Positions 51,445 to 52,555 of a DNA stretch of 64,000 bases are shown piece by piece. Position numbers and translations under genes: made by a program. Under the pieces are notes generated by a model that was given only the letters and a program-made list of their open reading frames with translations, had not been told where the DNA came from and did not search any database. This DNA is from Escherichia coli (GTDB lineage: Bacteria; Pseudomonadota; Gammaproteobacteria; Enterobacterales; Enterobacteriaceae): the NCBI RefSeq assembly GCF_003991155.1, contig NZ_CP031293.1; one strand, written 5' to 3'. Position 1 is the first letter of the stretch; every line of letters begins with the position of its first letter.

Positions 51445-51663
51445 ATATACCTCCAGTATATCATTTTTGAATGCATGGTGAGCAAAATACTCTTGCAAAA
51501 CCTTTAAAGAAAGCGCATTTACGCATCATTTTTTATTTTTGCGAGGCGTTTTCCAGATATGATGTAACAGTTGCAGTTATTATAAGTTCAAGTAAAACAA
51601 CCTTGTATTAATACCAGAATAAGGGCATCTGGTTTTTTATATTCAAGAATAAAAAATTTTTTG

Positions 51664-51882
51664 TCATTCCTTATGCTCCTTACACTGATCATCGACACCC
51701 ACTGTCTCCCCCTTTTGCCTGCCTCCCTTTGCTTTACGCACCGGGAATTGCTGACGTTCCAGATATTGCTCTACCGCTTCGCGTAAAATTGCAGATCGTG
51801 AAACCTTACGCCAGCCCCTAAGCTTGTTCAGCCGTTTAATTGCCTCTTCTGATAAATGAAGAAAAACCGTATTCATCGCCAT
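51664..51882 (-). CDS. yiiE: Ribbon-helix-helix (CopG-like) protein YiiE, paralog of YiiF
   Basis: MAMNTVFLHLSEEAIKRLNKLRGWRKVSRSAILREAVEQYLERQ (72 aa) with AAGG RBS. Confidence 0.8.
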   Translation of the reverse strand: MAMNTVFLHLSEEAIKRLNKLRGWRKVSRSAILREAVEQYLERQQFPVRKAKGGRQKGETVGVDDQCKEHKE

Positions 51883-52555
51883 TACCAATACCTTATATAT
51901 GACTCATTAATGTATGTGCGAAAATTACGCCGAAAAATCATTTAAAAAAAGCGGATTTTTGCATGCTGTTTTGTTTTTGCGAGACGTTTTCCAGAAATAA
52001 TAAGAACGTTGCAGTTGTTTCATTTGTTAATCAAAAATGGTTTAGTTATCGCCCAGGATGAGATATGGGTGCTATAAATATATTATATTCAGGGATATTT
52101 ATTTTTTGATTGGGTCTTCATTTGCATAATCTGAATGGTGTACCCGAAAAATGTCAGCATCCTAACAGCACCAGGATTTAAGGTGAAATTAATCATCCAT
52201 CACAGACCGGTCTTTACTTGCTCGTCGTTATAATTTTGTTGGTAACAGTTTGGGAAACAAGGAATTCCTTCCGGAACACCCCCGGTATCATCCGATAGCA
52301 TTGACGTCAATCATCGGCGCGACGATGAGTTTTTTTAATCGCATCATAGGGTGGCAACGGTCAGCACGATACGGGTCATAGCAAAACTCCTGCACAGGCG
52401 GCCACTATGCCGCTTTCACAGGAGTTCTGAATGCTAGTGCTTTCTGTATGGCATCGCCATGCCCCTCGCGGCTAAGCGCCTGCACACATCTCTCTTTGAA
52501 TGTCATTTTTGCAATGCATTGTCCGAATTCTGATAATCCTAATGAGTTTTACCCG

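Follow-up and report, generated by a model that had tools for sequence, protein, structure and literature searches.

Upstream of each of the two ribbon-helix-helix genes yiiF and yiiE, in the 64-kb stretch of E. coli DNA that we analysed as a whole (the window), lies a repeated box whose only deeply conserved part is a 28-bp core, aTTCTGGAAAgcggCTCGCAAAArnrAA. Judging by the sequence comparisons laid out below, the most likely reading, which we consider about an even call, is that this core is a conserved binding site upstream of a vapB-family promoter, inherited by both paralogs. The 45-nt box first delimited by eye in the sequence-only reading of this DNA would then be a composite, made up of an old, promoter-proximal 28 bp and a distal half found only in E. 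coli. The 28 bp would be an old, locus-specific protein site in the regulatory region of the fdhE-linked vapBC (yiiF-vapC) of the Enterobacteriaceae, and they sit at a fixed place, about -83 to -56 with their centre near -70, upstream of a conserved sigma-70 promoter (-10 TAnnTT) that would drive vapB. The core was copied with the gene at a tandem duplication of box-vapB-vapC in Escherichia, and purifying selection has since then kept it upstream of both yiiF and the orphan yiiE. The duplication and its conservation are shown, as are the spacing and, from published work, the transcription starts. We infer that the core would bind a trans-acting factor modulating this promoter with its weak -35, either as an upstream activator site or as a co-repressor site, a host protein being a more likely candidate for this factor than either YiiE or YiiF. 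As a regulatory site the core is not previously described, though ordinary in kind, and a literature search for the core sequence itself found it printed in no paper.

The window is 100% identical to E. coli strain 2016C-3878 and carries an intact yiiF(vapB)-vapC toxin-antitoxin pair. Both yiiF and yiiE lie on the minus strand, with their ATG codons at 51444 and 51882, respectively, and the two proteins are 44% identical; the positions of all features discussed here are collected in Table 1. The structure of YiiF itself has been solved by NMR (PDB entry 2K5J), and its K. pneumoniae ortholog is represented by PDB entries 7BY2 and 7BY3, which we take to be the VapBC complex. A minority of E. coli, as well as many other Enterobacteriaceae, have an intact vapBC module with yiiF as its antitoxin. 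When 5,426 complete E. coli genomes were compared with a 1.6-kb region containing vapC, only about 230 covered 80% or more of it, and in K-12 vapC is absent and the same two boxes are present. In a scan of one genome per species, the orthologous locus was found in Citrobacter, Salmonella diarizonae, Klebsiella, Kluyvera, Enterobacter, Trabulsiella, Pseudocitrobacter, Lelliottia, Franconibacter, and Kosakonia, and yiiE was confined to Escherichia. The usual layout of the orthologs is a divergent alpha/beta-hydrolase gene, a spacer of about 200 bp, vapB-vapC, and then a convergent fdhE. Plasmid- and phage-borne copies were considered as a test of the linkage between box and gene and proved uninformative, with plasmid relatives that were either about 35% identical or mislabelled chromosomes. 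The sole relevant report that our literature search found describes yiiE as H-NS-bound and SlyA-inducible, and the search found no study of yiiE or yiiF regulation.

Table 1. Features of the yiiE-yiiF locus, ordered by position in the window.
Feature	Position	Strand	Description
fdhE	49862-50791		convergent to vapC/yiiF/yiiE
vapC	50828-51202	-	PIN-domain toxin, intact here; Pfam PIN E = 4e-19; RefSeq: VapC family toxin
yiiF	51202-51444	-	80-aa ribbon-helix-helix VapB antitoxin; Pfam RHH_1, RefSeq annotation
TGATATAC-TGGAGG-TATATATG	51442-51463	-	GATAT-type repeats on both sides of the ribosome-binding site and start codon
Proximal sigma-70 promoter of yiiF/vapB	51476-51489	-	TATTTT 51484-51489; inferred start A 51476 (O157, 55 nt)
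104-nt direct repeat, yiiF copy	51478-51581	.	74% identical to the yiiE copy; encloses the box 51536-51578
Core, yiiF copy (TATCTGGAAAACGCCTCGCAAAAATAAA)	51532-51559	-	fits the cross-species footprint aTTC-TGGAAA-n4-CTCGCAAAA-rnrAA
E. coli-specific box promoter of yiiF	51574-51584	-	TATAAT 51579-51584; start G 51574 (K-12, 154 nt)
Relic of a second vapC	51614-51632	-	18/19 identical to vapC 50920-50938; between the yiiE stop and the yiiF box
yiiE	51664-51882	-	orphan ribbon-helix-helix paralog of yiiF; protein comparison, Pfam
Homologous proximal promoter of yiiE	51915-51927	-	TAATTT 51922-51927; inferred start A 51915
104-nt direct repeat, yiiE copy	51916-52019	.	encloses the box 51974-52016
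Core, yiiE copy (TTTCTGGAAAACGTCTCGCAAAAACAAA)	51970-51997	-	matches the yiiF copy at 25/27
E. coli-specific box promoter of yiiE	51991-52002	-	-10 TATTAT 51997-52002

The sequence-only reading had quoted one string upstream of each gene, and both strings are present, 1-4 nt off the coordinates it gave and each stopping 92 nt upstream of its start codon. Their similarity, which it put at about 85%, is real and measures 35/43 (81%). It further held the flanking DNA to be dissimilar, which is correct only in part, as the repeat continues toward the genes at 74% identity over a total of 104 nt. When the two 220-nt upstream regions were compared, the best ungapped matches were 25/27, 37/45, and 77/104. 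In 1000 shuffles that preserved dinucleotides, the maxima were 22, 30, and 55, respectively, so that the duplication is far beyond chance. The box is also specific to this locus, because a 66-nt stretch across it, searched in 5,412 complete E. coli genomes, gave a median of two matches per genome and the core is found just twice in the window at up to four mismatches. A dispersed repeat of the REP, ERIC, or MITE kind was rejected on the same median count.

The duplication extends well beyond the box. The yiiE and yiiF units can be aligned over their whole length as a tandem duplication that has since diverged, yiiE being an old tandem copy of yiiF, and identity between the units peaks at the box core, at 0.88 per 25 columns, with the best coding stretch reaching 0.84. 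Between the two genes lies a 19-nt relic of a second vapC, and about 40 nt past it a collinear TTGAACT is found at both the relic and vapC. The relic therefore identifies the duplicated unit as box-vapB-vapC, of which the first vapC decayed after the duplication.

To define which part of the box is conserved, we aligned 25 upstream regions from the roughly 10 genera named above, with those of E. coli yiiF and yiiE included. The positions T0 G1 G2 A3 (TGGA), C10 T11 C12 G13 (CTCG), A15, and A18 are invariant across all 25 regions, the four bases at positions 6-9 between TGGA and CTCG are less constrained (0.7-1.2 bits), and both edges of the core are sharp, with about 0 bits at -5 and beyond and again beyond +24. 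The proposal that the two genes keep a paralogous upstream element is thereby supported for a regulatory element, the core being kept in both copies and, across about 10 genera, also in front of the yiiF/vapB orthologs. The left half of the box as first delimited (AACTGCAAC...) is common to both copies within E. coli only. In E. whittamii, yiiE retains the core beside a left flank that is ancestral and Citrobacter-like, so the left half is young.

A tandem duplication invites the explanation that the box similarity is functionless, a leftover of the duplication itself or of gene conversion between the copies. The left half of the E. coli yiiE box does share derived states with yiiF (AACTGCAAC and an A at +6) that are missing in E. 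whittamii, which suggests a conversion or re-duplication event. The core, however, is conserved in about 10 genera that have a single copy, is invariant beside positions that vary freely, and is better preserved between the paralogs than most of the coding sequence. As an account of the box, a functionless leftover is hardly credible to us: it is contradicted for the core and is a fair description of the left half.

The box tracks vapB with or without the divergent alpha/beta-hydrolase gene beside it. Trabulsiella, Lelliottia, Pseudocitrobacter, K. spallanzanii, and E. coli all keep the box, although they lack the hydrolase gene or have it at a distance of more than 1 kb. In most genera the core does lie next to the divergent gene and could partly serve it, a point that was counted against our preferred reading.

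The position of the core relative to transcription was assessed with start sites given as start-codon distances in a secondary table (PMC10469882 Table S5, compiling RegulonDB 10.5 and EDL933 Cappable-seq), which we placed on the window through K-12 and an O157 genome. For K-12, RegulonDB 10.5 has starts 201 and 117 nt upstream of yiiE and 189 and 154 nt upstream of yiiF, and O157 EDL933 Cappable-seq has starts 201 and 41 nt upstream of yiiE and 55 nt upstream of yiiF (PMC10469882). The mapping depends on the start codons used by the source, which we deduced to be ATGGGC for yiiF and, for yiiE, one shifted by 6 nt; the shift is deduced because the yiiE starts are canonical (6-7 nt downstream, on a purine) only when counted from the second ATG. 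All three yiiE starts fall directly on or after -10-like hexamers, namely TATAAT, TATTAT, and TAATTT. The 117-nt start of yiiE is at 51997 at face value and at 51991, the second G of CTGG, if the second ATG is used, and the 41-nt EDL933 start is at 51921 at face value. For yiiF, the start at 51574 lies 5 nt after a perfect TATAAT and within the box as first delimited, and the 189-nt start is the A at 51609, 7 nt after TATTCT.

The O157 proximal starts of the two genes lie 7-8 nt after the hexamers TAATTT and TACTTT/TATTTT, which are homologous in the alignment of the two units and correspond to a cross-species TAnnTT. By inspection of the alignments, this TAnnTT is followed by a G and is fixed at positions 1, 2, 5, and 6, as in the conservation of a -10 element. 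The promoter conserved along with the gene is this proximal one. With the O157 proximal starts as reference, the core centre therefore falls at about -69 and the core spans -83 to -56; with the K-12 RegulonDB starts as reference, the core falls at about +1 to +40. We would like to note that the presence of K-12 starts in or at the box was counted against our preferred reading, in that the core could act at +1 to +40 and not at -70. No K-12 start site for the locus was found in the supplementary data of Cappable-seq, SMRT-Cappable-seq, Term-seq, and Rend-seq, and Term-seq gives a lone 3' end, at 4079994 on the minus strand, just beyond the yiiF stop and downstream of fdhE. A 22-codon upstream ORF that follows the yiiF box was rejected as a candidate feature, being by inspection not conserved outside E. 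coli.

The sequence-only reading had proposed that the box is a shared promoter, expecting transcription starts to map near the boxes. K-12 starts do lie in or at the boxes, so this part of the proposal is partly supported and escapes the refutation that the reading itself had named. The hexamers concerned are nevertheless found only in E. coli, the box starts of yiiF and yiiE are non-homologous, being offset by about 20 nt with respect to the core, and the core itself contains no match to a -10 or a -35. Only the E. coli-specific left half has a -10 hexamer placed 5-9 nt before a mapped start (51579-51584 and 51997-52002). The distal half (AACTGCAAC plus an AT-rich stretch) happens to carry the -10s TATAAT and TATTAT, from which the extra K-12 transcripts start.

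These same starts could be taken to mean that the box is plain sigma-70 promoter DNA, belonging to an upstream and possibly bidirectional promoter with no dedicated regulator and conserved for its promoter function only, a reading that we regard as distinctly unlikely. The RegulonDB starts 154 nt upstream of yiiF and 117 nt upstream of yiiE do sit beside TATAAT and TATTAT, respectively. On the opposite strand, the complement of ATTCTG, CAGAAT, is a possible -10 with a possible -35, TTyny+T, 16 nt upstream, and it points to the divergent hydrolase gene in other genera. The box, however, persists where the divergent gene is gone, and a consensus promoter scan of the minus strand of this region found nothing promoter-like. 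For a sigma-70 promoter the conservation is also misplaced: the forward -10 positions (-14 to -5) carry about 0 bits across species, and the peaks, TGGAAA and CTCGCAAAA, fall in the normally unconstrained spacer or initial transcribed region. The non-homologous starts of the two E. coli paralogs speak against it too, and the box starts are not in the stringent O157 Cappable-seq set.

Besides TAnnTT, a second conserved element downstream of the core is the TGATATAC-GGAGG-TATATATG block, which is nearly invariant in 24 orthologous regions; the sequence between the core and this block is otherwise poorly conserved. The distance from the TGG of the core to TGATAT is nonetheless 90-93 bp in 24 of the 26 regions that have both elements. 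The two Franconibacter regions depart from this spacing, at 105-107 bp, i.e., 14-15 bp more, an exception that was counted against our preferred reading.

With two ribbon-helix-helix genes each preceded by the box, the sequence-only reading took the box to be an autoregulatory operator with possible cross-regulation. In its broadest form this explanation has YiiF (alone or as VapB-VapC), YiiE, or both binding the box, possibly with cross-regulation, or else makes the box a distal operator that loops to the TGATATA repeats. The element is indeed locus-specific and travelled with a ribbon-helix-helix gene through the duplication, and the K-12 starts would put the core in the classic position of a repressor site. 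Autoregulation at the operon's own promoter is also the rule for toxin-antitoxin systems, as at the vapO1/vapO2 sites of Salmonella LT2 vapBC (PMC3378870). Within the core, CTGGAAAG and CTCGCAAAAG loosely resemble a direct repeat with a period of about 11 bp, an arrangement that would suit two ribbon-helix-helix dimers sitting on the same DNA face. Proteins of the CopG/Arc ribbon-helix-helix type read DNA with alternate residues of the N-terminal strand. The predicted DNA-facing residues differ at all three positions, being R-L-D in YiiF and T-F-H in YiiE, and that these three reading residues differ while the core is unchanged, with 25/27 identity between the copies, makes an autoregulatory operator unlikely. 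Unlike characterised vapBC operators (PMC3378870), the core is not a dyad and overlaps neither the conserved -10 nor the conserved -35. A search for an inverted repeat in the core found none. The claim of an autoregulatory operator is thus left unsupported by a core that has no dyad, lies 56-83 bp upstream of the proximal start, and stays the same whether the reading head is R/L/D or T/F/H.

The TGATATA repeats give the opposite picture. Two distant vapBC loci, L024 and L036, keep the MGRILLDL strand, which forms the reading head, together with TGATATA-N6-TGATATA and have no box, so that in these loci too the core does not co-vary with the reading head. A remote homolog with RILVDI at the corresponding place, L038, carries a GATAT dyad. 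In yiiE, the TGATATA pattern is lost or degenerate and the reading head has changed as well, and this loss in step with a changed head is the pattern expected of a true operator. Based on these cases, the TGATATA block behaves as the cognate operator and the box does not. The repeats at 51442-51463 are the better candidate for the YiiF/VapB operator, and the core is probably not a site of YiiE or YiiF themselves, although a one-sided cross-regulation in which YiiF acts on both boxes may occur.

A comparison with the Salmonella LT2 vapBC sites leads in the same direction. Like vapO1/vapO2 (PMC3378870), the core is short, conserved, locus-specific, upstream of vapB, and expected to take part in transcription control. 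As inverted repeats, the vapO1/vapO2 sites extend over the -10 and -35, and the protein that binds them is a VapB of the AbrB type (PMC3378870). In contrast, the antitoxin here is a ribbon-helix-helix protein. The core has no dyad, its distance to the conserved start downstream is 56-83 bp, and it shows no co-variation with the reading head of the antitoxin. The TGATATA repeats at 51442-51463 are closer to vapO than the box is.

We also considered the core as a sigma-54 (-24/-12) promoter, in which TGG would occupy -26 to -24 and GC -13/-12, with transcription beginning about 12 nt past the GC. Such a promoter would give vapB and yiiE a leader of about 105 nt and place them under the control of an enhancer-binding activator, and we think it very unlikely. 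The geometry of the core, TGG-N9-TCGCA with a less-constrained spacer at positions 6-9, is like that of sigma-54 promoters such as glnAp2, the GG-N10-GC spacing is exact (CTGGAAAACGCCTCGCA), and the footprint would cover -30 to -3. Both the TCGC form of the -12 element and the TGGAA form of the -24 element occur among validated sites, e.g., in glnAp2 (TTGGCACAGATTTCGCT) and rlmD (CTGGAACGCTTTTCGCA). However, on a weight matrix that we derived from 135 ChIP-seq sites (PMC4591121), the boxes of E. coli and of typical orthologs reach 4.7-7.2 bits (2.3-9.5 bits over the 25 regions), which is at or below the bottom of the validated range, the 135 real sites scoring 6.7-20.2 bits with a median of 14.4. 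Scores of at least 4.7 bits occur once per 520 positions of the window. No yiiE or yiiF site is reported in three kinds of genome-wide binding map, i.e., K-12 ChIP-seq (at high or low stringency), genomic SELEX, and ChIP-exo; H-NS silencing of the region could mask sigma-54 binding. The invariant A3-A5, C10, and C12 are at non-consensus positions and are not what sigma-54 would select, and the upstream flank, where an activator site would be expected, is not conserved. At 51917-51933, a 17-mer that scores better (12.7 bits) and is conserved for yiiE within Escherichia was rejected as a sigma-54 site, as it overlaps the proximal -10 TAATTT, does not fit the mapped start, and has no ChIP signal.

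Structured RNA was rejected as well. RNAalifold predicted 0 pairs for 20 orthologs from the box to the ATG, and no Rfam match was obtained at E-values up to 1. A GCG-nnn-CGC mini-hairpin in the core is, by inspection, not maintained by compensatory changes.

Our preferred reading, a conserved protein site upstream of the proximal promoter, finds its closest likeness in class I-type activator or co-regulator sites of sigma-70 promoters, which are centred at about -60 to -90. Like these, the core lies at a fixed promoter distance with a poor -35 downstream, and its 28 bp are the size of a footprint and hold two conserved half-elements about one helical turn apart. The difference is that no known regulator's motif matched the core, and that an activating or repressing effect is something we infer here. 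The core is not known to fit the motif of any E. coli regulator. In an informal comparison, those of CRP, FNR, Fis, IHF, PurR/LacI-type proteins, MetJ, the marbox, RcsB, and response-regulator repeats are unconvincing on the core, and the PutA motif, GTTGCA, which is present in the E. coli-only left half, is unconvincing as well. Tentatively, the core may be the site of an Enterobacteriaceae regulator or else a weak, H-NS-masked sigma-54 promoter.

Both yiiE and yiiF are counted among the uncharacterised putative regulators of E. coli K-12, with yiiF being the antitoxin of a vapBC module. The elements are now defined at base resolution: the core, with its TGG and CTCG to mutate, the TGATATA repeats as the likely true operator, and the conserved proximal promoter. 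The obvious reading, in which both proteins act on a shared box, is probably wrong. If the core is indeed a regulator site or an H-NS-masked sigma-54 promoter, vapBC and the orphan YiiE would be tied to host signalling and not to simple autoregulation. Beyond this locus, the core would be an ordinary case of a conserved cis-regulatory site inherited via gene duplication.

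The window carries an intact vapC gene, the PIN-domain toxin partner of the ribbon-helix-helix antitoxin gene yiiF, and most E. coli are without it: at least 80% of a 1.6-kb query was covered in only about 230 of 5,426 genomes. At the K-12 locus (L002, 3971-4299), REP-like repeats stand in the place of vapC, of which just the last codons remain, and K-12 yiiF has both a degenerate ribosome-binding site and a degenerate TGATATA block, the repeats around this site and the start codon that form a candidate YiiF/VapB operator. In some Escherichia, namely E. whittamii (L004, 2700-2900) and a further Escherichia locus (L005), yiiF-vapC was lost through independent deletions. 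The E. whittamii junction lies directly after the CTCGC of the yiiF box, i.e., the copy upstream of yiiF of the element repeated upstream of yiiF and its paralog yiiE, at a CGC(G)CAA microhomology between this box and the vapC 3' end.

Features in and around the yiiF-vapC and yiiE region of the window
Feature	Position	Strand	Remarks
CTGGCGCGCATTCTGCA, sigma-54 site	49383-49399	+	inside fdoI; 16.5 bits, sigma-54 matrix
Intact vapC	50828-51202	-	
ATATCTGGAAAAnnnnTCGnAAAA, third, weaker copy (78%)	51288-51310	-	inside yiiF, codons for QYLENQSK
Second-vapC relic, 19 nt	51614-51632		18/19 identical to 50920-50938
TCGGCGTAATTTTCGCA, sigma-54-like 17-mer	51917-51933	-	12.7 bits
Intact 617-aa ORF	52556-54409	-	a short way upstream of yiiE

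The copy of ATATCTGGAAAAnnnnTCGnAAAA inside yiiF is probably a chance, codon-driven match. On the plus strand, the short relic of a second vapC can be read as a CCAGA...TCTGG hairpin with T6 behind it and, from its sequence, looks like a terminator, but the same inverted repeat is also found within the intact vapC coding sequence.

In the RefSeq annotation, one piece of the 617-aa ORF is called a "transposase" and the other is a partial hypothetical protein; in K-12 only the first ~70 nt of the ORF are kept. Its product contains a CX5R-type motif, GCKSAKDRT, which we take to resemble the active site of the SopB/IpgD inositol phosphatases. Searching the product against Pfam gave no significant match, only a single weak one under the curated cut-off, and the NCBIfam search returned no match.

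A HigB/HigA-like toxin-antitoxin pair, as judged by ORF translations alone, was observed in Salmonella diarizonae (L008, 518-1272), past an alpha/beta-hydrolase gene which is divergent from vapB.

Of the sites scored with the sigma-54 weight matrix (built from 135 ChIP-seq sites; PMC4591121), CTGGCGCGCATTCTGCA matches IS47, which has been published as an intragenic sigma-54 site and lies upstream of fdhE. No sigma-54 ChIP signal is present at TCGGCGTAATTTTCGCA. This 17-mer upstream of yiiE is conserved in both E. coli and E. whittamii, and it shares bases with the sigma-70 -10 element (TAATTT) of the proximal yiiE promoter.
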